A stretch of 64,000 nucleotides of DNA from Escherichia coli (GTDB taxonomy: Bacteria; Pseudomonadota; Gammaproteobacteria; Enterobacterales; Enterobacteriaceae). The position numbers and the translations under genes were made by a program. Where the stretch lies: NCBI RefSeq assembly GCF_046105845.1, contig NZ_CP151004.1. One strand, 5' to 3'. This document shows, piece by piece, positions 2,288-46,239 of this stretch. Below the pieces are notes generated by a model. That model was not told where the DNA came from. It searched no databases and worked only from the letters and a program-made list of their open reading frames with translations. Numbering within the stretch: position 1 is the first letter of the stretch; each line of letters opens with the position of its first letter.

Positions 2288-3491
<1,204 letters not shown>

Positions 3492-3596
3492 AAACAAAGA
3501 ATTAGCTGATCTTTAATAATAAGGAAATGTTACATTAAGGTTGGTGGGTTGTTTTTATGGGAAAAAATGCTTTAAGAACAAATGTATACTTTTAGA
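3492..3596 (+). promoter_or_regulatory. CRISPR leader (AT-rich, contains the array promoter)
   Basis: 105-bp AT-rich segment between the cas2 stop and the first repeat; in type I-E systems the leader sits here and new spacers are added at this end. Confidence 0.6.
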
Positions 3597-5089
3597 GAGT
3601 TCCCCGCGCCAGCGGGGATAAACCGTCCGATCCGAAAAAACGGGTAGTCGCCTACGAGAGTTCCCCGCGCCAGCGGGGATAAACCGCCCAGTGGCGAAGG
3701 GCAACGTAAGCATAAAACGAGTTCCCCGCGCCAGCGGGGATAAACCGGGGTAACACCGTGGCAGCAAGTCGATCCGCTGGAGTTCCCCGCGCCAGCGGGG
3801 ATAAACCTGATGCGCGCCGACTTGAATCACTGCGCATGGCGAGTTCCCCGCGCCAGCGGGGATAAACCGATGGACCGTGCCGCTTTTCGCCACCTGACGC
3901 CGAGTTCCCCGCGCCAGCGGGGATAAACCGTGGCTCCGGTCGGGGCCCGCCGCTTGCGGTGGGAGTTCCCCGCGCCAGCGGGGATAAACCGGTGCGTGAA
4001 TTATCTATCCAGGCAAAAGTAACGAGTTCCCCGCGCCAGCGGGGATAAACCGCATATTTTTCAGGATATCTATAAATGGGCGGGGAGTTCCCCGCGCCAG
4101 CGGGGATAAACCGCTCATCAAAATAATCGGCATTGTCAGAAATCCGAGTTCCCCGCGCCAGCGGGGATAAACCGTGCACTGGCTGACTACGCCGCAGCAC
4201 ATAAATGAGTTCCCCGCGCCAGCGGGGATAAACCGATAATTGATGCGATCTGGTCCACTACAGTGGCGAGTTCCCCGCGCCAGCGGGGATAAACCGTAGT
4301 TGCTGTTTAGGCTGTGTTGTGGTTACCAGAGTTCCCCGCGCCAGCGGGGATAAACCGACCTGCTCGCGATGCGTCTGCCGCTGGAACCCGAGTTCCCCGC
4401 GCCAGCGGGGATAAACCGTTGCGCGATCCATCGCTCAGCTTTGATCATGAGAGTTCCCCGCGCCAGCGGGGATAAACCGCGCAGCGCCGACGAACTGGAC
4501 GGCGCTATAAAGAGTTCCCCGCGCCAGCGGGGATAAACCGATGTGGCAGAAATTGATGGAGCGGATGTGCGAGAGTTCCCCGCGCCAGCGGGGATAAACC
4601 GATTTAGATACGGCACACAGGAATGCGCTGGATGAGTTCCCCGCGCCAGCGGGGATAAACCGCGGCTGGCTGTAATAATGCACGGCAGTGTGACGAGTTC
4701 CCCGCGCCAGCGGGGATAAACCGTGAATAATAAGGCGCTGACGGGCGATATTACGGAGTTCCCCGCGCCAGCGGGGATAAACCGGAACAACCTGAACGGA
4801 TGCCACCTTTTCACCTGAGTTCCCCGCGCCAGCGGGGATAAACCAACCGTCAGCATAGACCCATCTAGTCAGATTCTGTGTTCCCCGCGCCAGCGGGGAT
4901 AAACCGGCCCATTCCCCCCATACCGGCGGCAAGTTTAAGTGTTCCCCGCGCCAGCGGGGATAAACCGATTCCGTCAAATTTATCACTCAACGCCAGTTCG
5001 TGTTCCCCGCGCCAGCGGGGATAAACCGGGCGCACTGGATGCGATGATGGATATCACTTAGAATTCCCCGCCCCTGCGGTAGAACTCGC
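3597..5089 (+). CRISPR. Type I-E CRISPR array: 24 full 29-bp repeats, one degenerate terminal repeat, 24 spacers of 32 bp
   Basis: Repeat GAGTTCCCCGCGCCAGCGGGGATAAACCG recurs with an exact 61-bp period from 3597 to 5000. The last three full repeats begin GTG instead of GAG, and repeats 4 and 21 differ in their last base. Degenerate repeat GAATTCCCCGCCCCTGCGGTAGAACTCG at 5061..5089. Confidence 0.97.
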
Positions 5090-5109
5090 AGCTCTCATTT
5101 TCAACCCCA

Positions 5110-6147
5110 TCAAGACGCCTTCGCCAGCTCCTTCACCAGAGGTAGCATTATCCGCATAACATCACGGCAGCGACGTTCTATTCTTCCTGGAAGTGCCTTA
5201 TCAATATGTTGTTGATTATCCAGTCTTACGTCATGCCAGCTATTTCCCGCAGGGAATGCAGCTGTTTTTGCGCGTTGCTGATAACCATCCTTATTCCCAA
5301 GATTCCAATTTGTTGCTTCTACCGAAAGTACGGCAATACCGGCTTTGTCGAAAACTTCGGCGTCATTACAACAGCCAGTACCCTTCGGATAATTTTTATT
5401 CAAACCCGGATTGGTCGTTGCGGCAATTCCATGACTACGCGCAATTGCCAGTGCCCTGTCGCGCGTTAATTTCCTTACTGCTTCAGGGGTTTTTACACCA
5501 CTATTGAAATACAATTTATCGCCAACAATTAAGTTATCGAGATTAATCACCAGCAGCGTATTTTTCTTTTCGGTGTCACTCATCCGCTTGAGTAAATTCT
5601 CAGCGCCTAATTTCCCTTCCTCTTCACCGCTGGTCGCCACAAATCGAATACCATACTCGGTAGGCGTATTTTTCAGGCGTTCTGCCAGTTCCAGCATAAC
5701 ACCTAAACCTGCGGCGTTATCATCTATTCCTTGTAACGTCAGCCCGCCGAGATTGGCATCGGCGTCAGCATCGCTCAGCGGAGCGTAAGTATCCAGATGC
5801 GCCATAATGATGATCTGCTGCGGCGCTTTGCCTTCATGAGCGGCAATCACCGTACTTCCCGTCACGTTATGCCAGCTCTTGCGATTATCGCGGGCGGTAT
5901 AAATATACCGACTATTAAATGTCCGAATATCACTGCGATAACCCATTTGCTGAAACTGCTGGCGAATATAATCGGCAGATAACATTTCTGCAGGAGTTCC
6001 GGTCATGCGTCCCGGAAAGAAAGTAGCAATATGTCGTGCCTGGGTATTAGCAAAATCGCCAGGTTTAGGTGACGAGGCGTGTACGGGGAGAATAAAGCAT
6101 ACGCCGAGCGCCAGGGCAGCGGTACGGTGGCGCAATGCGGAAAACAT
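5110..6147 (-). CDS. iap: Alkaline phosphatase isozyme conversion aminopeptidase (M28 family)
   Basis: 345-aa ORF with signal-peptide-like N-terminus, recognised as Iap; the array's distal end abuts its stop, the classic iap-CRISPR arrangement. Confidence 0.9.
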   Translation of the reverse strand: MFSALRHRTAALALGVCFILPVHASSPKPGDFANTQARHIATFFPGRMTGTPAEMLSADYIRQQFQQMGYRSDIRTFNSRYIYTARDNRKSWHNVTGSTVIAAHEGKAPQQIIIMAHLDTYAPLSDADADANLGGLTLQGIDDNAAGLGVMLELAERLKNTPTEYGIRFVATSGEEEGKLGAENLLKRMSDTEKKNTLLVINLDNLIVGDKLYFNSGVKTPEAVRKLTRDRALAIARSHGIAATTNPGLNKNYPKGTGCCNDAEVFDKAGIAVLSVEATNWNLGNKDGYQQRAKTAAFPAGNSWHDVRLDNQQHIDKALPGRIERRCRDVMRIMLPLVKELAKAS

Positions 6148-15117: not shown

Positions 15118-15179
15118 ATCGGCGGAACCAGGCTTTTGCTTGAATGTTCCGTCAAGGGATCACGGGTAGGAGCCACCTT

Positions 15180-16172
15180 ATGAGTCAGAATACGCTGAAA
15201 GTTCATGATTTAAATGAAGATGCGGAATTTGATGAGAACGGAGTTGAGGTTTTTGACGAAAAGGCCTTAGTAGAAGAGGAACCCAGTGATAACGATTTGG
15301 CCGAAGAGGAACTGTTATCGCAGGGAGCCACACAGCGTGTGTTGGACGCGACTCAGCTTTACCTTGGTGAGATTGGTTATTCACCACTGTTAACGGCCGA
15401 AGAAGAAGTTTATTTTGCGCGTCGCGCACTGCGTGGAGATGTTGCCTCCCGCCGCCGGATGATCGAGAGTAACTTGCGTCTGGTGGTAAAAATTGCCCGC
15501 CGTTATGGCAATCGTGGTCTGGCGTTGCTGGACCTGATCGAAGAGGGCAACCTGGGGCTGATCCGCGCGGTAGAGAAGTTTGACCCGGAACGTGGTTTCC
15601 GCTTCTCAACATACGCAACCTGGTGGATTCGCCAGACGATCGAACGGGCGATTATGAACCAAACCCGTACTATTCGTTTGCCGATTCACATCGTAAAGGA
15701 GCTGAACGTTTACCTGCGAACCGCACGCGAGTTGTCCCATAAACTGGACCACGAACCAAGTGCGGAAGAGATCGCAGAGCAACTGGATAAGCCAGTTGAT
15801 GACGTCAGCCGTATGCTTCGTCTTAACGAGCGCATTACCTCGGTAGACACCCCGCTGGGTGGTGATTCCGAAAAAGCGTTGCTGGACATCCTGGCCGATG
15901 AAAAAGAGAACGGTCCGGAAGATACCACGCAAGATGACGATATGAAGCAGAGCATCGTCAAATGGCTGTTCGAGCTGAACGCCAAACAGCGTGAAGTACT
16001 GGCACGTCGATTCGGTTTGCTGGGGTACGAAGCGGCAACACTGGAAGATGTAGGTCGTGAAATTGGCCTCACCCGTGAACGTGTTCGCCAGATTCAGGTT
16101 GAAGGCCTGCGCCGTTTGCGCGAAATCCTGCAAACGCAGGGGCTGAATATCGAAGCGCTGTTCCGCGAGTAA
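15180..16172 (+). CDS. rpoS: RNA polymerase sigma factor RpoS (sigma-38), full length
   Basis: Internal ATG of track ORF 15144..16172 gives [34 protein letters not shown]... (330 aa); no premature stop, codon 33 reads E. Confidence 0.95.
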
Positions 16173-16189
16173 GTAAGCATCTGTCAGAA

Positions 16190-16224
16190 AGGCCAGTCTC
16201 AAGCGAGGCTGGCCTTTTTCTTTT
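16190..16224 (+). terminator. Rho-independent terminator of rpoS
   Basis: GC-rich hairpin AGGCCAGTCTCAAGCGAGGCTGGCCT followed by a T-run, about 18 nt after the rpoS stop. Confidence 0.6.
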
Positions 16225-16292
16225 GTTTGGGAAGTCGGTGTGTTTTGTCGCCTGGATAAGACTCGTCAGCGTCCTACCCGGCAATCAGCATC

Positions 16293-16637
16293 CTATTTGC
16301 TCATCATCTTGCGCACCAACTGCATAAACAGCTCCTTCTCTTCTGCACTCAAACGCCCCAAAAATTCCTCATCCACACTGTCACCAATCGGTATCGCCGC
16401 AGCAAGTACCTTTTCTCCTTCGGCAGTCAGCCAGACAAAGCGACGCCGCTTGTCAGCGGCGTCATGTTCACGTCTGACTAAGCCACGATTTTCCATTCTT
16501 GCCAACATTTCTGCCAGCGTTGCTTTGGTGCTGACTGCTGCTTCTATCAGTGCCACCTGTTCGATACCAGGCTTATCAGCAATGGCGCGCATCACCGCGT
16601 ACTGTGGTTTGGTCAGGTCAGGTAACTCGACCCCGGC
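16293..16637 (-). pseudogene. MarR/SlyA-family regulator, apparently 5'-truncated
   Basis: The 100-aa track ORF begins inside the winged-helix region (…LTKPQYAVMMRAIADKPGIEQVALIEAAVSTKATLAEMLARMENRGLVRRE…); the frame stays open upstream only to a stop at about 16638, with no room for the N-terminal helix. Confidence 0.55.
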
Positions 16638-16793
16638 TCAAGCCCGGCCGGGATCACCGACAAGCTGATTATCGACGCCACCACGCCTGTCGCCCCGGAC
16701 AACCGTGGTCACTACAGCCAGCCCGTGGTGGATTTGCCGGAAACCAAAGCCTGGGCTGAAAAACTGACCGCTATGCTGGCCGCACGTAAATAA
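16626..16793 (+). pseudogene. 3' fragment (about 55 codons) of a UbiD-family decarboxylase gene
   Basis: Frame without a start codon translates to …GITDKLIIDATTPVAPDNRGHYSQPVVDLPETKAWAEKLTAMLAARK*, which looks like a UbiD-family C-terminus; it is bounded upstream by a stop at about 16623 and abuts the truncated MarR gene. Confidence 0.5.
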
Positions 16794-16803
16794 GGAGAAC
16801 AAG

Positions 16804-17040
16804 ATGATTTGTCCACGTTGTGCCGATGAACAGATTGAAGTGATGGCGAAATCGCCGGTAAAAGATGTCTGGACGGTCTACCAGTGCCAGCATTGCCTCT
16901 ATACCTGGCGCGATACCGAACCGCTACGCCGCACCAGCCGCGAACATTATCCCGAAGCGTTCCGCATGACGCAGAAAGATATTGATGACGCGCCGATGGT
17001 GCCGAGCATCCCGCCGCTGCTGGCGGCAGATAAGCGTTAA
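16804..17040 (+). CDS. Small zinc-ribbon protein resembling the D subunit of hydroxyarylic acid decarboxylases (EcdD/BsdD-like)
   Basis: 78-aa ORF MICPRCADEQIEV…VYQCQHCLYTW with two CxxC pairs; AAGGAG ribosome-binding site 7 nt upstream; lies right after the UbiD-like fragment. Confidence 0.6.
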   Translation: MICPRCADEQIEVMAKSPVKDVWTVYQCQHCLYTWRDTEPLRRTSREHYPEAFRMTQKDIDDAPMVPSIPPLLAADKR

Positions 17041-17080
17041 TAAAAAGTGCCGGGTAGTGGCTTTGCTTTACCCGGCCTCA

Positions 17081-17737
17081 TTACTTTATTTTATAAAATG
17101 ACAGCCGCCCGCTTTTCGGCGATCCGGTATCAATATAAATCTGGTTAGCGAACGTCTGAATGTTATCAAACATCATATGTCCAAATATAAAATAATCAGC
17201 GCCGTTTATTTGTTGTAACTCGCCATTAAGCGATTTCTGCACACGATCAACAGGCCAGAGTAGTTCTCTCTCCGCTATTTCTTTGTCAAAGAGATATTCA
17301 TTCCCCGGATAATCTGCATGTGCGATGACATATTTTATTATGTCGTTAGTGATTTCAATAATATGTGGAAGGCGATGAAATTTCAGCAACAGATTTATTG
17401 CTTCTTGTTGTTCCGTCTCATTTAATTCAAAGAACCAGTCGCCGCCGCTGGCAAGCCACATATTTCCATCGCCAGTTTCGAATGCATCAAGCGCCATCGC
17501 TTCATGGTTGCCTTTAACCGACGTAAACCAGGGTTGGTTTAGCAGGTGCAGCACGTTAAGACTCTCCGGCCCACGATCAATATTATCGCCGACAGAAATA
17601 AGTAAGTCGGTTTCAGGGCAAAAAGAGAGTTGATGTAAGCGGGATTGTAATAATTGATAGTCACCATGAATATCACCAACGGCCCATATATGGCGATAGT
17701 GATGGGTATTGATTTTTTGATAGCGTGTAGATGGCAT
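17081..17737 (-). CDS. pphB: Serine/threonine protein phosphatase 2
   Basis: 218-aa ORF with metallophosphatase motifs (GDIHGD, GDNIDRG, GNHE); adjacent to mutS. Confidence 0.9.
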   Translation of the reverse strand: MPSTRYQKINTHHYRHIWAVGDIHGDYQLLQSRLHQLSFCPETDLLISVGDNIDRGPESLNVLHLLNQPWFTSVKGNHEAMALDAFETGDGNMWLASGGDWFFELNETEQQEAINLLLKFHRLPHIIEITNDIIKYVIAHADYPGNEYLFDKEIAERELLWPVDRVQKSLNGELQQINGADYFIFGHMMFDNIQTFANQIYIDTGSPKSGRLSFYKIK

Positions 17738-17842
17738 GGTTTTACCCTGTAAAATAAGCTTTCCTATTATACAGGGTATTTTTATTTGATTCGTCAGTTG
17801 TCGTTAATATTCCCGATAGCAAAAGACTATCGGGAATTGTTA

Positions 17843-20404
17843 TTACACCAGACTCTTCAACCGATAAATCCACTCCAGCGCCTGACGCGGAGTCAGTGAA
17901 TCCGGGTCGAGGTTTTCCAGTGCCTCGACCGCAGGCGAAGTTTCTTCTGGTACGGGCAGCAAAGACATTTGCGTACCATCCACTTGCGTAGCGGCGGCGT
18001 TCGGCGAAATGCTTTCCAGCTCACGCAGTTTTTGCCGTGCGCGCTTAATCACCTCTTTTGGCACGCCCGCCAGAGCAGCAACCGCCAGGCCGTAGCTTTT
18101 GCTCGCCGCGCCATCCTGCACGCTATGCATAAAGGCAATGGTGTCGCCGTGCTCCAGTGCATCGAGATGCACGTTGGCGACGCCTTCCATTTTCTCCGGT
18201 AACTGGGTCAGCTCGAAATAGTGGGTAGCAAACAGCGTCAATGCCTTAATCTTATTCGCCAGATTTTCTGCGCACGCCCACGCCAGCGACAGACCATCGT
18301 AAGTGGACGTTCCACGCCCGATCTCATCCATTAACACCAGACTGTATTCGGTGGCGTTATGTAAAATATTGGCGGTTTCAGTCATCTCCACCATAAAGGT
18401 TGAGCGCCCGGAAGCCAGGTCATCTGCCGCGCCTACGCGGGTAAAGATGCGATCGATAGGTCCAATCTCGACTTTTTGTGCCGGTACATAGCTGCCGATG
18501 TAGGCCATCAGCGCAATCAGTGCGGTCTGGCGCATATAGGTACTTTTACCGCCCATATTCGGACCGGTAATGATCAACATGCGACGCTGCGGCGACAGGT
18601 TCAGCGGGTTGGCGATAAATGGCTCGTTCAGTACCTGTTCAACCACCGGATGGCGGCCTTCGGTGATGCGAATACCCGGTTTATCAATGAAGGTCGGGCA
18701 GGTGTAGTTCAGCGTATAGGCCCGTTCCGCCAGGTTCACCAGCACGTCGAGTTCCGCCAGCGCGCTCGCGCTCTGTTGCAACGCTTCCAGATGCGGCAAC
18801 AGCAGGTCGAACAACTCTTCATAAAGCTGTTTTTCCAGTGCTAGTGCTTTGCCTTTTGAAGTGAGAACTTTGTCTTCGTACTCTTTTAGCTCTGGAATAA
18901 TGTAGCGCTCGGCGTTTTTCAGCGTCTGGCGACGCATGTAATTGATGGGTGCCAGATGGCTTTGTCCACGGCTGATCTGAATGTAATAACCATGAACCGC
19001 GTTAAAGCCGACTTTCAGCGTGTCCAGGCCAGTACGTTCACGCTCGCGGACTTCCAGACGCTCCAGATAATCGGTCGCGCCGTCAGCCAGCGCGCGCCAC
19101 TCATCCAGCTCTTCGTTATAGCCCGATGCGATAACACCACCGTCGCGTACCAGCACTGGCGGTGTGTCGATGATTGCTCGCTCCAGCAGATCGCGCAGCT
19201 CGGCAAACTCGCCCATCTTCTCACGTAGCGCCTGTACCGGAGCGCTATCGACAGTTTCTAACTGCGCACGCAGCTCCGGCAGTTGCTGGAAAGCGTGACG
19301 CATACGGGCCAGATCGCGTGGGCGAGCAGTTCGTAAAGCCAGACGCGCCAGAATACGTTCCAGGTCGCCGACCTGACGCAGTACCGGCTGCAGCTCGGCG
19401 GTGAAATCCTGCAATGCGCCAATAGTTTGCTGGCGCTCAAGCAACACGCGGGTATCGCGCACTGGCATATGCAGCCAGCGTTTCAGCATACGACTACCCA
19501 TCGGCGTTACAGTGCAGTCGAGCACTGAAGCCAGCGTGTTTTCCGCACCGCCCGCCAGGTTCTGAGTAATTTCCAGGTTACGACGTGTCGCGGCATCCAT
19601 AATGATGCTGTCCTGCTCACGTTCCATGGTGATAGAACGAATATGTGGCAGGGTCGTACGTTGGGTATCTTTCGCATACTGCAACAGACAACCGGCAGCA
19701 CAAAGTCCGCGCGGCGCGTTCTCGACGCCAAAACCGACCAGATCGCGGGTGCCAAATTGCAGATTCAACTGCTGGCGCGCGGTGTCGATTTCAAACTCCC
19801 ACAGCGGGCGACGGCGCAGGCCGCGACGGCCTTCAATTAACGACATTTCAGCAAAATCTTCTGCATACAGCAGTTCCGCAGGATTAGTGCGTTGCAGTTC
19901 TGCCGCCATCGTTTCCCGGTCAGCCGGTTCGCTCAGGCGAAAACGACCGGAACTGATATCCAGCGTCGCGTAGCCGAAACCTTTGCTGTCCTGCCAGATA
20001 GCCGCCAGCAGGTTGTCCTGACGCTCCTGCAACAGGGCTTCATCGCTGATGGTGCCTGGCGTAACGATACGCACAACTTTGCGCTCAACCGGACCTTTGC
20101 TGGTCGCCGGATCGCCAATTTGTTCGCAGATGGCAACGGACTCGCCCTGATTCACCAGTTTGGCGAGGTAGTTTTCCACCGCATGGTAGGGAATCCCCGC
20201 CATCGGGATCGGCTCTCCCGCCGAAGCACCGCGTTTGGTCAGTGAAATATCCAGCAGTTGCGATGCGCGTTTTGCGTCGTCATAAAACAGTTCATAAAAA
20301 TCACCCATCCGGTAAAACAGCAGGATCTCGGGATGCTGGGCTTTCAGCTTGAGATACTGCTGCATCATGGGCGTATGGGCGTCGAAATTTTCTATTGCAC
20401 TCAT
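17843..20404 (-). CDS. mutS: DNA mismatch repair protein MutS
   Basis: 853-aa [43 protein letters not shown]… with Walker [10 protein letters not shown]. Confidence 0.97.
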
Positions 20405-20650
20405 GGGGTTATGTCCGGTTCCCTGATATTAAATGGGGTGTGATGGTTTTTATTTTCGTTGTAATCACATAAGGCGCACATGATACCGGAGTTAATCATT
20501 TCAGGGGAAGAAGCGAACGGCGAGTTCTTGATGCTGGTTCCGGGAAAGATGCTGTTTTGCAGCTTTTGCGTGATGCTTATGAAGCAAGTACGCAAAATTG
20601 TATCGGTTGGCTAACCCTTCTTCTTTAGAGTCATAGTGCCTTTTAAGATT

Positions 20651-20673
20651 AAGTTGTAATATAAATGCATCTT
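20651..20673. promoter_or_regulatory. Candidate NsrR operator upstream of ygbA
   Basis: AAGTTGTAATATAAATGCATCTT lies about 18-40 nt upstream of the ygbA ATG; the right half matches the AAATGCATCTT half-site I recall for NsrR, and ygbA is a known NsrR regulon member. Left half is degenerate. Confidence 0.4.
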
Positions 20674-20690
20674 AATGAGGTGGAGGCAGC

Positions 20691-21035
20691 ATGTCCGGCA
20701 AGCGTATCTCTCGTGAAAAACTGACGATTAAAAAAATGATCGATCTTTATCAAGCGAAATGCCCGCAGGCGTCAGCGGAGCCGGAGCATTACGAGGCGTT
20801 GTTTGTTTACGCGCAAAAGCGGCTGGATAAATGTGTGTTCGGCGAAGAGAAACCAGCCTGTAAGCAGTGTCCGGTGCACTGTTACCAGCCTGCAAAGCGT
20901 GAAGAGATGAAACAGATTATGCGTTGGGCCGGGCCGAGAATGCTGTGGCGTCATCCGATCTTAACCGTGCGTCATCTCATCGATGACAAGCGTCCGGTGC
21001 CGGAGTTGCCAGAAAAATATCGTCCAAAGAAATAA
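20691..21035 (+). CDS. ygbA: Nitric oxide-responsive protein YgbA
   Basis: 114-aa ORF MSGKRISREKLTIKKMIDLYQAKCPQASAEPEHYE…; divergent from mutS. Confidence 0.85.
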   Translation: MSGKRISREKLTIKKMIDLYQAKCPQASAEPEHYEALFVYAQKRLDKCVFGEEKPACKQCPVHCYQPAKREEMKQIMRWAGPRMLWRHPILTVRHLIDDKRPVPELPEKYRPKK

Positions 21036-21073
21036 ATCTGCCGGAGAGCCATACTCTCCGGCAAATAAGGCGT

Positions 21074-21502
21074 TTACGCTTTGGTGGCAATCAGGATGGC
21101 TGATGCTTTGATCAATGCAATAACGCGTGAGCCAGTGGTGAGTTTCATTTCATCCTGACTTTCATTTGTTACCACTGCCACAATTTCAAAACCCGCATCC
21201 GTTTTGATATGGACAGTGGCGTTCACTGCGCCTTCGGTGATTGTCGACACGCTGCCAGCAAACTGGTTGCGAGCAGAGAATTTCAGTCCACAGTCTTCCG
21301 TTGCCAGCGTTACCCACGGGGCTTTAATCAGGGCAATCGCTTCTTTCCCTTTCGCCAGACCCAGAGCCTGCTGGCTGCTGTGAGTCACAATTGCCACCAG
21401 CTTTGCACCACCTGCCAGCGTCAGTTCTACTTCGTCATTCACCGCGCCCATTGCTACTGCGCTAACTGTTCCGGTTAATTGATTTCTTGCTGAAACTGCC
21501 AT
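21074..21502 (-). CDS. Tandem TOBE (Mop-like) molybdate/tungstate-binding protein
   Basis: 142 aa from the ATG that has a strong GAAAGGAGG ribosome-binding site; two ~68-aa repeats each starting with the SARNQ(L/F)xG(T/S)V Mop signature; starts 44 nt after the fhlA stop on the same strand. Confidence 0.75.
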   Translation of the reverse strand: MAVSARNQLTGTVSAVAMGAVNDEVELTLAGGAKLVAIVTHSSQQALGLAKGKEAIALIKAPWVTLATEDCGLKFSARNQFAGSVSTITEGAVNATVHIKTDAGFEIVAVVTNESQDEMKLTTGSRVIALIKASAILIATKA

Positions 21503-21546
21503 ACTGCCTCCTTTCATTGAATGTTGATCGAGTATAACCACATCTG

Positions 21547-23625
21547 TTAAATCAATGCCGATTTATCAATTCCCAGTCGCTTCATCCGTGACAGCAGAGT
21601 CGTGCGTTTCAGCCCCAGACGTTGCGCAGCGCCTTTAGGCCCGGCAACCACGCCGTTGGTTTCTTTCAGCACGCGAACAATCAACTGATATTCATCTTCG
21701 CCCTCCTGGGCGACAACCGTTGCGGCAGGCGGCGTTTCTGGTTCCGGTAAAACAATATCTGGCAGTGACAGCTGCAGCACGTTGCCGCGTGTTAGCAATA
21801 CCGCGCGCTCAATGACGTTTTCCAGTTCGCGTACGTTACCCGGCCACTCCATGTTGCTCAGGATGCGCAGCGTCTCGGCAGGAATGCTGTCGATATTGCG
21901 CCCCAGACGACGGGCAATTTTGAAGGTAAAGGCTTTCGCCAGCAGCGGAATATCTTCCGGACGCTCGCGTAGTGGCGGCAGGTGAATCGGGAATACGTTC
22001 AGGCGGTAATAGAGATCGCTACGGAACTCACGGTCGGCGACCATTTTTTTCAGATCGCGGTTAGTTGCGGCGATTAGACGCACGTCCGTCTGAATGATTT
22101 TGTTGCTGCCGAGACGTTCAAACTCCTGTTCCTGTAATACACGCAGCAACTTCGGCTGTAACTCCAGTGGCATATCGCCCACTTCGTCGAGGAACAGGGA
22201 GCTTTTATCCGCCAGTTCAAAACGACCGATACGCTGGGCGCTGGCACCGGTAAAAGCCCCACGCTCATGACCAAACAGATCGCTCTCTAGCAATCCGGCA
22301 GGCATCGCCGCGCAGTTCATTTTTACCATGCGGCGATTATTACGCCCACTGAGATTATGGATCGCGCGGGCAATCAGCTCTTTACCCGTGCCAGTTTCAC
22401 CGAGGATCAGCACGGTACTGTCGCTTTGCGCCACCATTTCAACTTGTTTAAGTACGCTGTACATGGCTTCGCTGCGGCCAATAATCTCGCCAAATTCACT
22501 ATCAACATTGTTGAGCTGCTCGGTCAGGGCGAGGTTTTCATCAACCAGCCGTTCTTTCAGACGATGGATTTCCTGATAGGCGAGGGCGTTATCGACAGCG
22601 ATTGCCACACGTTCGGCAATCTGGCGCAGTAAATTCAGATTGGTAGTGGTAAACACTTTCTCTTCGCATTGCGCCAGTTTCAGCACGCCCAGCATGGTGT
22701 CGCCAGACATCAGCGGTAACAGGCACAAGGTTTGAATCTGGTTGCCCCAGGTGTCGAACAACATGCGTTCATAGGGGGCTAAATCGTCCCGCTCGTGGAG
22801 ATTAATCAGCAGCATCTCTTTGCTTTTGAACACGCGTTCGGTGAGGGTTCCGGCTTCATCGACTTCGCTCTGTTCGTGGGCGGGATGCTGTTTATCAAGA
22901 TAGTGAGTGGAGTAGATGTTGAGTTTGTTTTTACGGTGGCTGCGTAAGACGATGCTGATATCGTCAATGTCGAAGTAGTAATGGATTTCTTTGGCGACTT
23001 CGCTGACCAGTTCGTCCATATCCAGGCGGGAAAGCACCGCGTTGGTAATGGCAACCAGGATGCGGAAGTTATCGCGCTCCCGGCATAACAACTCATAGTC
23101 GACATTATTGACGACGCGGCTCTGGATTTGTTCGGTGACGACAGAAACGATCTGCGTAAATGTTTGCAGACGATTGAACTCTTTTTCGCTCCAGGGGCGA
23201 TCGTCATAACGAATAAATTCACAGCCACCAAAAATATGCCCTTCCGCCGCCAGTGGCATCAGGCAATAGTGACCAAATTTGGGGTATAGCCCACCTGCGG
23301 CCAGCTGCGGCCAGGTTTCACAAAATTCTTCGTAACTGCAATGCAGCGTATCAGGGCGCGACAAAATGCTGCGTACCGGACCGTGTGCCAGAACAGTTTC
23401 GTCTTCATATTTAATGGGGGTGTCTTTTTCACGCGATGCGTAATAAGACGCACGTTGAGTCTGCGCTTGCCACAACACAATAGCCGCGTTGTCGGCGAGC
23501 GCAGAACGCTTTACCAGTTGCGAAAGAGCCTCACACAGCGAGGCCAGATCGGGCTGCTGCAATAGTGTCCGAGTGATGTCGAACAACCCTTGTTGTCCGA
23601 GATCACTCATCGGTGTATATGACAT
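21547..23625 (-). CDS. fhlA: Formate hydrogenlyase transcriptional activator FhlA (sigma54 enhancer-binding protein)
   Basis: Internal ATG of track ORF gives MSYTPMSDLGQQGLFDITRTLLQQPDLASL… (692 aa); AAA+ sigma54-interaction domain ([14 protein letters not shown]). Confidence 0.95.
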   Translation of the reverse strand: MSYTPMSDLGQQGLFDITRTLLQQPDLASLCEALSQLVKRSALADNAAIVLWQAQTQRASYYASREKDTPIKYEDETVLAHGPVRSILSRPDTLHCSYEEFCETWPQLAAGGLYPKFGHYCLMPLAAEGHIFGGCEFIRYDDRPWSEKEFNRLQTFTQIVSVVTEQIQSRVVNNVDYELLCRERDNFRILVAITNAVLSRLDMDELVSEVAKEIHYYFDIDDISIVLRSHRKNKLNIYSTHYLDKQHPAHEQSEVDEAGTLTERVFKSKEMLLINLHERDDLAPYERMLFDTWGNQIQTLCLLPLMSGDTMLGVLKLAQCEEKVFTTTNLNLLRQIAERVAIAVDNALAYQEIHRLKERLVDENLALTEQLNNVDSEFGEIIGRSEAMYSVLKQVEMVAQSDSTVLILGETGTGKELIARAIHNLSGRNNRRMVKMNCAAMPAGLLESDLFGHERGAFTGASAQRIGRFELADKSSLFLDEVGDMPLELQPKLLRVLQEQEFERLGSNKIIQTDVRLIAATNRDLKKMVADREFRSDLYYRLNVFPIHLPPLRERPEDIPLLAKAFTFKIARRLGRNIDSIPAETLRILSNMEWPGNVRELENVIERAVLLTRGNVLQLSLPDIVLPEPETPPAATVVAQEGEDEYQLIVRVLKETNGVVAGPKGAAQRLGLKRTTLLSRMKRLGIDKSALI

Positions 23626-39512: not shown

Positions 39513-40523
39513 ATGACGACGATGCTGGAAGTGGCGAAGCGCGCCGGGGTTTCAAAAGCGACCGTTTCCCGCGTGCTTTCAGGTAATGGCTACGTCAGCC
39601 AGGAGACTAAAGATCGCGTGTTTCAGGCGGTAGAAGAGAGCGGTTACCGTCCAAACTTGCTGGCGCGCAATCTGTCGGCGAAGAGTACTCAGACGCTGGG
39701 GCTGGTCGTGACCAACACACTTTACCACGGCATTTATTTTAGTGAATTACTCTTTCATGCCGCGCGAATGGCGGAAGAGAAAGGGCGACAGTTGCTATTG
39801 GCAGATGGTAAACACAGCGCCGAAGAAGAGCGCCAGGCGATTCAGTATCTGCTGGATTTGCGCTGCGACGCCATTATGATTTACCCGCGTTTTTTAAGTG
39901 TGGATGAGATCGATGACATCATTGACGCGCACAGTCAGCCGATAATGGTGCTTAATCGCCGCCTGCGCAAAAACAGCAGCCATAGCGTCTGGTGCGATCA
40001 TAAACAGACCAGCTTTAACGCCGTGGCAGAGTTGATAAACGCCGGACATCAGGAGATTGCTTTCCTTACCGGCTCGATGGATTCCCCCACCAGCGTTGAA
40101 CGTCTTGCCGGGTATAAAGACGCGCTGGCGCAGCATGGTATTGCGCTCAATGAAAAACTTATCGCTAACGGTAAATGGACGCCTGCCAGCGGGGCCGAAG
40201 GGGTAGAAACGTTGCTCGAACGTGGGGCTAAATTTAGCGCGTTAGTTGCCAGTAACGACGATATGGCGATAGGTGCGATGAAAGCGTTGCACGAGCGCGG
40301 CGTAGCGGTGCCAGAGCAGGTGTCAGTTATCGGATTCGATGATATCGCTATTGCCCCCTACACCGTTCCGGCGCTCTCCAGCGTAAAAATTCCGGTGACT
40401 GAGATGATTCAGGAAATTATTGGACGGCTGATTTTTATGCTCGATGGCGGGGATTTCTCACCGCCGAAAACCTTCAGCGGAAAACTGATCCGCCGCGGCT
40501 CCCTCATTGCTCTTTCGCAATAA
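39513..40523 (+). CDS. ascG: LacI/GalR-family repressor of the asc operon
   Basis: Internal ATG of track ORF gives MTTMLEVAKRAGVSKATVSRVLSGNGYVSQ… (336 aa); divergent from ascFB. Confidence 0.92.
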   Translation: MTTMLEVAKRAGVSKATVSRVLSGNGYVSQETKDRVFQAVEESGYRPNLLARNLSAKSTQTLGLVVTNTLYHGIYFSELLFHAARMAEEKGRQLLLADGKHSAEEERQAIQYLLDLRCDAIMIYPRFLSVDEIDDIIDAHSQPIMVLNRRLRKNSSHSVWCDHKQTSFNAVAELINAGHQEIAFLTGSMDSPTSVERLAGYKDALAQHGIALNEKLIANGKWTPASGAEGVETLLERGAKFSALVASNDDMAIGAMKALHERGVAVPEQVSVIGFDDIAIAPYTVPALSSVKIPVTEMIQEIIGRLIFMLDGGDFSPPKTFSGKLIRRGSLIALSQ

Positions 40524-40537
40524 ACATTGTCATCACA

Positions 40538-40571
40538 TGTCATCGTCACTAGTGTCGATGACATCGTTTTT
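40538..40571 (+). terminator. Hairpin plus T-run after ascG (candidate terminator, or regulatory inverted repeat upstream of hydN)
   Basis: Near-perfect 24-26-bp inverted repeat TGTCATCGTCACTAGTGTCGATGACA followed by TCGTTTTT, about 15 nt after the ascG stop and about 100 nt before hydN. Confidence 0.4.
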
Positions 40572-40671
40572 CCTGCATTACAGAATTTAATTTCTTTAAA
40601 TAACAGTAAATTAAAAACTGGCATGATTTGTGAATGTATCGGCGCATTAACTGTCATTGCTGGAGAATTTG

Positions 40672-41199
40672 ATGAACCGTTTCATCATTGCTGACGCGAG
40701 TAAATGTATTGGTTGCCGTACCTGTGAAGTGGCGTGCGTGGTTTCTCATCAGGAGAATCAGGACTGTGCATCGCTGACCCCGGAAACTTTTTTACCGCGA
40801 ATCCATGTCATTAAAGGTGTGAACATTTCCACGGCAACAGTCTGCCGTCAGTGTGAAGATGCACCGTGCGCTAACGTCTGCCCGAATGGTGCTATCAGTC
40901 GTGATAAAGGGTTTGTTCATGTGATGCAGGAACGTTGTATTGGTTGCAAAACCTGCGTTGTGGCTTGCCCGTATGGCGCGATGGAAGTGGTGGTACGTCC
41001 GGTGATTCGCAACAGCGGCGCGGGGCTGAATGTACGGGCTGACAAAGCCGAAGCCAATAAATGCGACCTCTGTAACCATCGTGAAGACGGCCCGGCGTGT
41101 ATGGCGGCTTGCCCGACTCATGCGCTGATTTGTGTCGATCGTAATAAACTTGAACAACTGAGCGCAGAAAAACGCCGCCGTACGGCGCTGATGTTCTAA
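40672..41199 (+). CDS. hydN: Formate dehydrogenase-H associated 4Fe-4S electron transfer protein HydN
   Basis: Internal ATG of track ORF gives [22 protein letters not shown]… (175 aa) with four ferredoxin-type clusters. Confidence 0.92.
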
Positions 41200-41351
41200 A
41201 AATCTTACAGAACTGTTCTGGCATCAAAGGAATTCCCGGAAATATTCGTAGAATACGGAGCGGGCGGTATCGCCGACCTGTGACTGCCGGATGCGACGCT
41301 GTCGTGTCCGGCTGGGCGGGTTACGCAATTCATGATGGCGGGAATAACTCA

Positions 41352-43592
41352 ATGGCAAAAAACATATCTTGCGGTGTCCAACTGCGTATTCGTGGCAAAG
41401 TGCAGGGCGTCGGTTTTCGTCCGTTTGTCTGGCAGCTGGCACAGCAATTAAATCTTCACGGCGATGTCTGTAATGACGGCGATGGCGTAGAAGTCCGGCT
41501 GCTGGAAGACCCGGAAACGTTTCTTGTGCAGTTGCATCAGCACTGCCCGCCGCTGGCGCGTATTGATAGCGTCGAGCGTGAGCCGTTTATCTGGTCACAA
41601 CTGCCCACTGAGTTCACTATCCGCCAGAGCACAGGCGGCACCATGAATACGCAAATTGTCCCGGATGCCGCCACTTGCCCTGCTTGCCTTGCCGAAATGA
41701 ATACCCCGGGCGAGCGGCGTTATCGTTATCCGTTTATCAACTGTACCCACTGCGGCCCACGTTTCACCATTATTCGCGCGATGCCTTACGACCGCCCGTT
41801 TACCGTGATGGCGGCGTTTCCGCTGTGTCCGGCCTGTGACAAAGAATATCGCGACCCGCTCGATCGTCGCTTCCACGCCCAGCCGGTGGCCTGCCCGGAG
41901 TGTGGCCCACATCTTGAATGGGTAAGTCATGGTGAACATGCAGAACAAGAGGCGGCATTACAGGCAGCTATCGCACAGTTAAAAATGGGCAACATTGTCG
42001 CCATCAAAGGGATTGGCGGATTTCATCTCGCCTGCGATGCGCGTAACAGTAACGCGGTGGCGACACTGCGGGCGCGCAAACATCGCCCGGCGAAACCGCT
42101 GGCGGTTATGTTGCCAGTGGCAGAAGGTTTACCAGACGCTGCCCGTCAGTTGCTTACCACACCCGCCGCGCCGATTGTGCTGGTGGATAAAAAATACGTT
42201 CCTGAGCTTTGTGATGATATCGCCCCTGGCCTTAACGAAGTTGGGGTGATGTTGCCTGCGAATCCGCTTCAGCATTTGCTGTTACAGGAACTGCAATGTC
42301 CGCTGGTGATGACCTCCGGCAACCTGAGCGGTAAACCACCGGCTATCAGCAACGAACAGGCGCTGGCGGATTTGCAGGGCATTGCCGACGGATTCTTGAT
42401 ACATAACCGCGACATCGTGCAGCGGATGGATGATTCGGTGGTGCGTGAAAGCGGCGAAATGCTGCGCCGTTCGCGGGGGTATGTGCCGGATGCGCTGGCT
42501 TTGCCTCCGGGCTTTAAAAATGTTCCGCCTGTGCTGTGTCTCGGCGCGGATCTGAAAAATACCTTCTGCCTGGTGCGCGGTGAACAAGCAGTGTTGAGTC
42601 AGCATCTGGGCGATTTAAGTGACGATGGCATCCAGATGCAGTGGCGCGAAGCGTTACGCCTGATGCAAAACATCTACGATTTTACCCCGCAATACGTTGT
42701 GCATGACGCACATCCGGGCTATGTCTCCAGCCAGTGGGCGCGCGAAATGAATCTGCCGACGCAAACGGTGCTGCATCATCATGCTCATGCGGCGGCGTGT
42801 CTGGCAGAACATCACTGGCCGCTGGATGGCGGTGATGTCATTGCGTTGACGCTCGACGGTATCGGTATGGGGGAGAACGGCGCTTTATGGGGCGGCGAGT
42901 GCCTGCGGGTGAACTATCGCGAATGCCAGCACCTGGGCGGCTTGCCAGCGGTGGCGCTTCCGGGGGGCGATTTGGCTGCAAAGCAGCCGTGGCGTAACCT
43001 GCTGGCGCAGTGCCTGCGCTTTGTGCCGGAGTGGCAGAATTACCCTGAAACGACAAGTGTGCAACAGCAAAACTGGAGCGTGCTGGCGCGGGCCATTGAG
43101 CGTGGAATTAACGCGCCGCTGGCGTCATCGTGTGGGCGTTTGTTCGATGCTGTGGCGGCGGCGCTGGGCTGTGCGCCAGCCACGTTAAGTTATGAAGGTG
43201 AAGCAGCTTGTGCTCTGGAGGCGCTCGCAGCTTCGTGCGACGGAGTGACGCATCCGGTGACGATGCCGCTGGTGGACAATCAACTGGATCTCGCCACTTT
43301 CTGGCAGCAGTGGCTGAACTGGCAGGCACCGGTTAATCAACGCGCGTGGGCGTTTCATGATGCGCTGGCGCAGGGTTTTGCCGCGTTGATGCGTGAGCAG
43401 GCCACGATGCGCGGTATCACTACGCTGGTATTTAGCGGTGGGGTTATTCATAACCGATTGCTGCGTACACGCCTGGCGCATTATCTCGCTGATTTCACAT
43501 TGCTCTTTCCGCAGAGTTTACCGGCGGGTGATGGCGGCTTGTCTCTGGGGCAGGGGGTTATTGCTGCGGCGCGCATCCTGCATACTGCATAG
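41352..43592 (+). CDS. hypF: Hydrogenase maturation carbamoyltransferase HypF
   Basis: Internal ATG of track ORF gives [30 protein letters not shown]… (about 747 aa): acylphosphatase domain, two zinc-finger CxxC pairs, YrdC and Kae1-like domains. Confidence 0.93.
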
Positions 43593-43635
43593 TGGCGGAT
43601 GTGGCGTAACTAAGCGTAAATAGAGCGCGGACAGT

Positions 43636-43657
43636 CCCCTCGCCCTTTGGGCGAGGG
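43636..43657. terminator. GC-rich hairpin between the convergent hypF and norW genes (candidate bidirectional terminator)
   Basis: CCCCTCGCCCTTTGGGCGAGGG (9-bp stem) in the 77-bp spacer between the hypF stop and the norW stop. Confidence 0.45.
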
Positions 43658-43669
43658 AGAAAAACATGC

Positions 43670-44803
43670 CTATACCGGCAACGTTTTCAACAATCCAAAT
43701 GCCTCTTTCATCCTATCCTCACTGACCACAAAGGCGCGAAGCTGGTCAGCATCGTCAACGCCGCGCGCCACCATTCCCTGGCGTTCGGTATTAATTTGCC
43801 AGCGTAAATCCTGACGCTGGGTTTCGCCTGCCAGATGCAGCGGTAATTCCGGCGTTTTGATTTTCACCAGCATCGCCGGGAGTTTCAGCGGCGTGTTATT
43901 GCCGAGAAGATTTTTTGCCAGCACCATCGCGCTAAGTTGAATCGGCTGGAGGAACGGCAATACCTGACCGTTAATTTCCGCGCAATCGCCCAGCGCATAA
44001 ATATCGGCATTACTGGTTTGCAGATAACTATCGACGCAAACGCCGCGATTAATCGTCAGCCCGGCGCGTCGTGCCAGGGCGGTTTCCGGGCGCAGCCCGG
44101 TGGCGGCAATTATCGCATCCACTTCGATGCAACGCTGGCGGTCCAGCGTTGCCAGAATGCCAGAATCCGTTTTTTCCAGCCCCTGCAACTGAGATTTTAA
44201 CAGCAGATGAACGCCCATCTCCGTCAACCGATGCTGTAAGCGGCTGCTTACTTCCGGTGGCATTAACGATGCCAGAATACTGGCAGCGTTGTCGATTAGC
44301 GTGACCGCTTTGCCTGCACGACAAAAATCCATCGCCAGTTCGCTACCAATCAAACCACCGCCGACAATCAACACGCGTCGGGCATCCCGCAGTTGCGTTT
44401 CACAGGCGCGATACTCTTGCTGACTATTTAACGTCAGCATTAACTCACGCCCGGGCACTGGCGGGACAAAGGCGCTGGCACCGGTTGCCAGCACTAACTT
44501 GTCGTATTGCCACTGATTATTCTGACTTTTCACCACATGGGCTTCGGCATCGATATCCGTTACCCAGGTGTGCGGAAACAGGCGCAGATTAAACTGCTCG
44601 GCAAATTCACCCGCTGTCTGGCGGGTAAGGTCATCGGCACGTTGCCCATGGCTGATAACATGGCTGAGATCCGGTTTGTTGTACTCATCCATGCTGTCGG
44701 CGGCAATCAGGGTTAATGGAATACTGGCGTCCTGTTTGCGAATATTTTTCACCAGTTGGCGGGCGGCGAAGCCCGAACCAATGATCACAATGCCGTTGCT
44801 CAT
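43670..44803 (-). CDS. norW: NADH:flavorubredoxin oxidoreductase
   Basis: 377-aa ORF with FAD/NAD Rossmann motifs ([16 protein letters not shown]). Confidence 0.93.
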
Positions 44804-46239
44804 TTTGCCTCCGATGCCAGTTCGTCAAAGACGTCTTTGCCAAGGGAGCATTCCGGGCACAGGAAGTTATCCGGGACTTCACTCCACGGCGTTCCTGGTG
44901 CAACGTCCTGCATTGGCTCGCCTTTTGCCGGATCGTAAATCCACTGGCAGACGCTGCACTGCATCCGTGGGCCGAGGTCAGCCGTCGTGGTGGCAGAGGT
45001 TTCTTCTTTAACCACCGTATTCACCGTGCTCTGCGGCAGCGGCGCGAGCGCCCACTGACGGGCAATTTCACGACCGTGTTCACGGCATAACTCCAGCGCG
45101 TCCTGGTCCGGTCGCCATTTGGCTTTCAGGCTAAGCGACATTTCGAAACCTGCATCCTGCAGGCGTGTGGAAAGACGATCCACCGCACCGCCGCTCCAGC
45201 CGTGAGAGCCGAAAGCACTGGCGTGTTTGTTACGGAAGCGTAATCCGGTCATCTCCTCCACCAGCCCGGCGATTTTCGGCATCATCACGTTATTCATCGT
45301 CGAAGTGCCAACCAGCACGCCTTTTGAGCGGAAGACATTGGTCAGGATTTCGTTTTTATCGCTTCGGGCGACGTTGAAAATTTTCACCGCCACGCGTGGG
45401 TCGGTTTCCGCAATCCCCTGGGCGATAGCGTCAGCCATCATGCGGGTATTATTCGACATGGTGTCGTAGAAAATGGTGATTCTGTCTTCCTGATAATCCG
45501 CCGCCCATTTCAGGTACAGCTCGACAATTTGCGTCGGGTTATCGCGCCATACCACGCCGTGAGAGGTCGCTATCATATCGACTGGTAAGTTAAAGCCCAG
45601 GATCTCGGTAATTTTCGGCGTTACCAGACGGCTGAACGGCGTCAGGATATTGGCGTAGTAACGCTGGCACTGCTCGAAAAGCTCCGTCTGATCCACTTCA
45701 TCGTTGAACAGATGCTCGTCGCAGTAGTGCTGACCGAAAGCATCGTTACTGAACAGCACCGCGTCGCCTGTCAGGTAAGTCATCATGCTGTCCGGCCAGT
45801 GCAGCATTGGCGTTTCGACAAAAATGAGCTGTTTGCCGTTGCCGATATCCAGCGTGTCGCCAGTTTTCACCACATTAAAATTCCACTCCGGATGATGGTG
45901 ATGACCATTTATCGAGTCGATAGCGTTGGCAGTACAGTAGATCGGCGTATCGGGAATTTGTGCCATCAGTTCGGTCAGCGCCCCGGCGTGGTCCTCTTCT
46001 GCATGGTTAATCACGATGTAATCGATATCCGCCAGATCGATTTCATTACGCAGGTTCTGCACAAATTCGCGGCTGAATTTATGGTCGACGGTGTCGATCA
46101 GTACGTTTTTTTCTTCGCGAATGAGGTAGCTGTTGTAGCTGCTGCCGCGCAGCGTTTTATATTCCGTGCCGTGAAAATCACGCACTTCCCAGTCACGTTG
46201 ACCAACCCAATGAATGTTATTTTTCACCACAATAGACAT
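44800..46239 (-). CDS. norV: Anaerobic nitric oxide reductase flavorubredoxin
   Basis: 479-aa ORF: metallo-beta-lactamase-like and flavodoxin domains, C-terminal rubredoxin ([10 protein letters not shown]…CPEC). Confidence 0.95.

Follow-up and report, generated by a model that had tools for sequence, protein, structure and literature searches.

Among the D subunits of non-oxidative hydroxyarylic acid decarboxylases (VdcD, EcdD, KpdD and BsdD), ShVdcD was shown to bind Zn via C3, C6, C28 and C31 and to associate tightly with the UbiD-like VdcC, in a complex that buries 59% of VdcD residues; the small subunit is strictly required for activity (Marshall et al. 2021, PMC8379154). Complex formation and the requirement for VdcD were demonstrated for the Sedimentibacter and Bacillus proteins, and the only known role of VdcD is that of an obligate partner of VdcC (PMC8379154). 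Effects on other enzymes have also been described: non-cognate D subunits gave limited cross-activation of another VdcC (PMC8379154), and AroY activity was attenuated by KpdD/EcdD in engineered strains (PMC5779730). LpdD, PpcGamma and PhdC are likewise small proteins that are encoded beside a UbiD-like gene and needed for activity or maturation, but share no sequence similarity with VdcD (PMC8379154). The protein described here, unlike these three, is clearly a VdcD-type subunit.

The rpoS-mutS region is a textbook polymorphic site of E. coli. In some strains this region (o454-nlpD) carries a slyA(marR)-kpdB-kpdC-kpdD cassette, and it is a recombination-rich mosaic (Ewers et al. 2014, PMC4209514). 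The stretch of DNA that we analysed (64 kb, hereafter the window) has the gene content of an Escherichia chromosome, truD-surE-pcm-nlpD-rpoS ... pphB-mutS-ygbA-fhlA-hyp/hyc, with a vdcD gene between rpoS and pphB. It resembles the 'O157/EPEC-type' rpoS-mutS arrangement (PMC4209514) in the site, in the flanking genes rpoS, pphB and mutS, in the cassette and in the mosaic flanks; it differs in being a 2,068-bp internal deletion derivative, which falls outside the four main patterns of that study. The gene family, the structure, the obligate VdcC-activator role and the polymorphism of the locus are already known, and the RefSeq annotation of the exact allele, as two pseudogene fragments and a 'subunit D', is already public. 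The features of the locus are as follows (window coordinates).

15144..16172, + strand: rpoS, longest ORF (in RefSeq, a 330-aa form with its start at 15180); left conserved neighbour, co-oriented with vdcD
16186..16219, + strand: intrinsic terminator of rpoS, a 15-bp stem followed by a T-run, from a terminator scan
16293..16628, - strand: what remains of marR, which codes for the MarR-family regulator of the vdc operon; the first 24 codons and the promoter are missing
16624..16629, no strand: deletion junction, 6-bp microhomology AACTCG
16626..16793, + strand: remnant of vdcC (UbiD-like catalytic subunit), last 55 codons and stop, no start codon
16792..16797, + strand: Shine-Dalgarno-like AAGGAG, 6 nt before the vdcD ATG, overlapping the vdcC stop codon
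16804..17040, + strand: vdcD (ecdD/kpdD/bsdD family), intact gene for the 78-aa zinc-ribbon subunit D of a non-oxidative hydroxyarylic acid decarboxylase
17081..17737, - strand: pphB (serine/threonine phosphatase 2; NCBIfam PRK09968, E-value 1.6e-138), right conserved neighbour, convergent with vdcD

The assignments of rpoS and pphB were also taken from the annotation at matching positions of homologous loci.

The 78-codon ORF is a genuine intact vdcD, coding for the zinc-ribbon activator subunit of a phenolic-acid decarboxylase. Its product, read from ATG to TAA, matches the NCBIfam equivalog NF041205 over profile positions 1-70 of 70 (E-value 1.2e-35; 121.2 bits against a curated cutoff of 30), and a precomputed match to PF26358 exists for an identical protein; the NF041205 match ruled out a chance ORF. 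Pfam matches to DUF1062 and DUF5795 were sub-threshold and were set aside, the identity having come from NCBIfam and the PDB, where the ShdD/ShVdcD chain of 7AE4 was matched with E-value 3.5e-11. The two CxxC pairs are CPRC (residues 3-6) and CQHC (residues 28-31). In an alignment of 17 VdcD sequences from Enterobacterales, Vibrio, Shewanella, actinomycetes and Sedimentibacter the four cysteines (3, 6, 28 and 31) are invariant, and the window protein keeps all 16 of the 16 invariant columns (C3, R5, C6, S17, W23, C28, C31, Y33, W35, R36, T38, E39, F53, P67, P70 and L72). As the Zn ligands of ShVdcD are at the same positions, Zn binding is predicted for the window protein.

An AlphaFold2 model (pLDDT 87.3) places strands at residues 11-16, 24-28 and 34-36, and thus predicts a three-stranded antiparallel zinc ribbon followed by a proline-rich C-terminal tail (PMVPSIPPL). 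In a fold comparison the top seven PDB matches of the model were ShVdcD chains (probability 1.00), followed by the ribbons of NrdR and TFIIS. The likeness to VdcD/EcdD/KpdD/BsdD and to the solved ShVdcD (PDB 7AE4/7AE5/7AE7) therefore extends to the full-length match, the cysteine positions, the ribbon and the tail. The AAGGAG site is unchanged in comparison with the intact operon, being identical in the O157 locus (L001 5120-5195). The original prediction, made from the sequence alone, had described an intact 78-aa ORF with two CxxC pairs and a good ribosome-binding site, coding for a zinc ribbon like that of a decarboxylase D subunit; both the intactness and the identity were borne out, the latter by family match, by the confident ribbon with solved ShVdcD as its best match, and by synteny.

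What the window does not have is the rest of the system: in contrast to the VdcD/EcdD/KpdD/BsdD systems it lacks vdcB, vdcC and the operon promoter. In E. coli the intact order is rpoS / marR(-) vdcB vdcC vdcD / pphB(-) mutS(-), and in our reference, the intact O157 locus (L001), marR(-) occupies 2596-3003, vdcB 3150-3743, vdcC 3743-5170 and vdcD 5181-5417. With blastn, window 16000-16629 aligned with L001 2304-2932 and window 16624-17394 with L001 5001-5771, the two alignments overlapping by 6 nt. The overlap is the hexamer AACTCG, of which the intact locus has a copy at each breakpoint and the window a single one; the sequence of the junction is GGTCAGGTAACTCGACCC. Additional short repeats (CGTGCTG) adjoin both AACTCG copies. 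In comparison with L001 the window is short of ~2,068 bp: the 5′ end of marR is gone, as are the region with the divergent promoters, the whole of vdcB and 88% of vdcC.

The two remnants beside the junction are easily recognized. Window 16626-16790 corresponds to VdcC residues 421-475 of 475 and is 100% identical (55/55) to O157 VdcC; against the NCBIfam VdcC profile (NF041204) it covers only positions 418-466 of 467, with 55 bits at a cutoff of 650. A full-length UbiD fold with prFMN domain and E(D)RE motif is not encoded, and the vdcC remnant is a pseudogene fragment devoid of both the catalytic and the prFMN domain. The marR remnant (Pfam MarR, E-value 1.7e-8) is 96% identical in tblastn to residues 25-134 of the O157 MarR; it falls short of a complete 135-aa winged-helix MarR with its own promoter, as the first 24 codons and the upstream sequence are deleted. 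Neither remnant contains frameshifts. Although vdcD no longer sits directly 3′ of a complete vdcC in a vdc(B)CD operon, vdcB being absent and vdcC reduced to its last 55 codons, operon position is a context feature and the protein is filed as VdcD. The ancestral adjacency of vdcC and vdcD is evident from the vdcC remnant and the intact loci; in the window, as in the intact operon, vdcD begins 10 bp after the vdcC stop codon.

A tblastn search detected no further UbiD- or UbiX-like coding sequence in the 64-kb window. The claim that the genes for the UbiD-like and UbiX-like subunits had been lost beside this ORF is thus confirmed by the ~2,068-bp gap against the intact O157 locus, while the proposed search for paralogs elsewhere in the genome was answered as far as the window extends. 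E. coli has a housekeeping UbiD for ubiquinone biosynthesis, and its gene, like ubiX, lies elsewhere on the chromosome.

In our view vdcD of the window very probably survives as a passive relic, left by one microhomology-mediated deletion event within the polymorphic region between rpoS and mutS. The ancestral locus was marR(-) / vdcB-vdcC-vdcD, coding for a prFMN-dependent reversible decarboxylase of the 4-hydroxybenzoate/vanillate type in which VdcB makes the cofactor, VdcC is the UbiD-like catalyst, and the zinc-ribbon protein VdcD binds VdcC tightly and activates it allosterically. Deletion between the AACTCG repeats took away the 5′ end of marR together with the two divergent promoters, the whole of vdcB and 88% of vdcC, and abolished the decarboxylase. 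The right endpoint lies 175 bp before vdcD, which left the gene and its ribosome-binding site untouched. That the gene is still intact may be attributed to its small size as a mutational target, to the youth of the allele and to continual exchange of the flanks with intact alleles through homologous recombination, rather than to a role of its own. The locus is a clean case of operon decay via microhomology-mediated deletion, and an intact small ORF beside a scar is no evidence of function.

To place the allele in the species we considered 5,426 complete E. coli genomes. Matches to vdcD were found in 2,414 of them and to vdcBC in 2,409 (2,381 at ≥80% coverage); all three vdc genes were absent from ~3,010 genomes, so that 56% of genomes have no vdcD, and vdcD alone was seen in a handful (~0.1%). 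The presence of vdcD tracks that of vdcBC in >99.7% of genomes. Such a gene is dispensable to the species, and its presence is tied to vdcBC. The exact VdcD protein of the window occurs in 12,281 index blocks, and in the 10 contexts shown it was encoded in intact marR-vdcB-vdcC-vdcD operons (10/10). Among 80 species-level loci, vdcC was found directly 5′ of vdcD in all cases with enough upstream sequence to be evaluated, except in one Escherichia lineage.

The architecture of the window with an identical junction was present in six of the 5,426 complete genomes (L002-L007; soil, human, dog and unknown sources; Hong Kong, USA, Switzerland, Japan and Canada), and one draft assembly (GCA_000176655.2, L105) is a further carrier of the junction. 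Strains with the allele are VCSW7, KE55, AST215, 19KM1831, VCSW5 and CFIAFB20140388. In all six complete carriers PGAP annotated subunit D as intact, next to a MarR pseudogene ('incomplete; missing N-terminus') and a pseudogene for a 'hypothetical protein'. The deletion is therefore a rare circulating allele that is not private to the window genome. A recent deletion had been one of the two suggested explanations for the intact small subunit. This explanation is supported, as the window VdcD is the common intact-operon allele and no protein change has accumulated since the deletion; the relic is young, but given the other carriers and their mosaic flanks it is not peculiar to one genome.

The allele was found on at least eight flanking haplotypes from several continents. 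In comparison with the window the carriers differ at 1-13 of 237 sites in vdcD, 0-25 of 657 in pphB, 16-20 of 121 in the rpoS-marR spacer and 0-4 of 1,029 in rpoS. For no carrier did we find an intact parent haplotype near-identical on both sides of the junction (the pairs L007-L018, L004-L019 and window-L020/L021 were compared). The spacer (window 16173-16292) is hypervariable, and in L020 IS200C is inserted there. Elsewhere in the window, the best identities to the 5,426 complete genomes were 97.8% for 17041-22000 (pphB-mutS-fhlA) and 98.8% for 40000-46000 (hypF-norVW), which indicates that the lineage is poorly represented among complete genomes and that the mutS region is strongly mosaic.

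Such haplotype diversity could also arise if the site were a recurrent hotspot, with independent slippage between the AACTCG repeats in different backgrounds; in that case, too, vdcD would be a relic. To the right of the junction the deletion haplotypes diverge within 5-50 bp, and each is closest to a different intact allele: vdcC′ and vdcD of L007 are 99.3% identical to those of intact swine strains, while the left flank of the window is 99.5% identical to the intact locus of MRSN352231. The CGTGCTG repeats beside both AACTCG copies would also favour recurrence. On the other hand, 6-bp repeats 2 kb apart are a weak substrate for repeated identical events. A T at position 16679, 50 bp from the junction, is common to all carriers except the window, and it is rare among the intact loci of the panel (2 of 15); this speaks for a single origin. 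Moreover, L105 combines the left flank of the window with a right flank like that of L007; it is identical to the window over 16280-16651 and differs further right, a pattern expected from recombination. In a region known as a recombination-rich mosaic (PMC4209514), heterology at the deletion would naturally end conversion tracts at the junction. We thus regard repeated deletion as highly improbable; a single deletion event, with flanks later exchanged by recombination, is the most economical reading.

The other suggested explanation was an independent role: the orphan VdcD might be kept for a function that does not involve VdcC, e.g. modulation of the housekeeping UbiD, with expression by stationary-phase read-through from rpoS. 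Several observations could be taken in this sense and, equally, against a passive relic. An allele found on at least eight haplotypes is not extremely recent, and yet no disrupted vdcD was observed among its carriers. D subunits can influence non-cognate UbiD-family enzymes, given the partial activation of another VdcC (PMC8379154) and the altered activity of AroY in the presence of KpdD/EcdD (PMC5779730). In the window vdcD is co-oriented with rpoS and downstream of it.

Nevertheless, the intactness of vdcD carries no selection signal, as the dead vdcC remnant (55/55 aa) and the marR remnant (96%) are as well kept. Private variants of the deletion carriers, relative to 11 intact loci, comprised three non-synonymous and two synonymous changes in vdcC′ against one and six, respectively, in vdcD. 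This hint of constraint on vdcD was discarded: all six synonymous changes were in L007, imported from operons like those of the intact swine strains. Further, the majority of E. coli genomes do without vdcD, and those with vdcD alone are extremely few. In the known complex 59% of VdcD residues are given to the VdcC interface (PMC8379154), and as VdcC is deleted at the window locus, the complex that defines the known function of VdcD cannot form there.

Expression of the orphan gene appears doubtful as well. The native divergent promoter region of the vdc operon is deleted, and crude promoter scans found no sigma-70-like site in 16050-17150, with none on the + strand at a relaxed 8/12 threshold. 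The rpoS terminator has a predicted fold of -26.2 kcal/mol (z-score -3.7); an Rfam scan of 16100-17150 gave only sub-threshold, terminator-like matches, located on this hairpin. Judged by its sequence, the terminator should block most read-through towards vdcD. With VdcC gone and no evident promoter after the strong terminator, we infer that the orphan vdcD probably has little or no expression and no function. Support for an independent role of the small protein is thus lacking: its sequence is that of the allele widespread in intact operons, the dead remnants are equally preserved, the gene is coupled to vdcBC in the species, the promoter is gone and a strong terminator precedes the gene. We consider such a role decidedly unlikely.

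A thread of wider interest is that vdcD has been orphaned three separate times in Escherichia. The second orphan belongs to a cryptic Escherichia lineage (SCPM-O-B-8794 and relatives; L042 1541-1926, L102/L103 2893-3278), the mutS of which is 91% identical to that of the window. Its order is the rpoS terminator, 31 unrelated bp, the last ~20 bp of vdcC, a Shine-Dalgarno site, an intact vdcD and pphB. This context was seen in 24 of the 24 contigs read with that exact protein. Two members of the lineage are 1.3% apart over 6.2 kb, with only one synonymous site in vdcD. The third orphan was found in E. coli 7_33_80A (L106 1403-4002) in the order marR′, IS91-family transposase with a hypothetical gene, vdcC′ (last 85 codons), intact vdcD and ygbN; here the 5′ end of marR, vdcB and the greater part of vdcC have given way to an IS91-family element.

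One could argue that three independent deletions that leave vdcD and its Shine-Dalgarno site intact, co-oriented downstream of rpoS, point to a function; for the relic reading, the two further deletions are likewise a difficulty. The orphan of the cryptic clade appears fixed, keeps all invariant residues and has a dN/dS of 0.095 (about 0.1) relative to E. coli, which again speaks for an independent role and against a passive relic. Counted as changes, though, at similar dS there are 5 non-synonymous ones in this orphan, whereas sister clades that keep the intact operon have 1 (dN/dS about 0.02); while too few for significance, these counts suggest, if anything, relaxed rather than maintained constraint. 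Retention of vdcD in three deletions is easily explained by chance, because the target that vdcC (1,428 bp) offers to a right-hand endpoint is six times the size of vdcD (237 bp). We therefore find it very unlikely that a free-standing VdcD has been kept repeatedly after VdcBC loss, expressed by read-through from rpoS and acting on another target such as UbiD. By analogy with the effects of D subunits on non-cognate enzymes, an interaction of VdcD with UbiD is conceivable; if an orphan VdcD were expressed and did bind UbiD, this would link an accessory subunit to ubiquinone biosynthesis by cross-talk.

Other forms of the operon were encountered in the course of the analysis. In E. coli BEC1-S17-ESBL-09 (L020 4744-6170) vdcC carries a frameshift, with vdcB and vdcD both intact, another decay route that spares vdcD. 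Of the 2,409 vdcBC-positive genomes, 28 had their matches at <80% coverage in one place. The order marR-vdcC-vdcD, with no vdcB detected within 6 kb upstream, was seen in Superficieibacter, Cedecea, Rouxiella, a Pluralibacter MAG and Mangrovibacter (L038, L041, L062, L091 and L098, respectively), implying that prFMN would come from UbiX or a distant prenyltransferase. Finally, in L015, L019, L021 and L106 vdcD adjoins ygbN of the K-12-type ygb/otn cluster and not pphB; the vdc cassette thus coexists with either right-hand arrangement.
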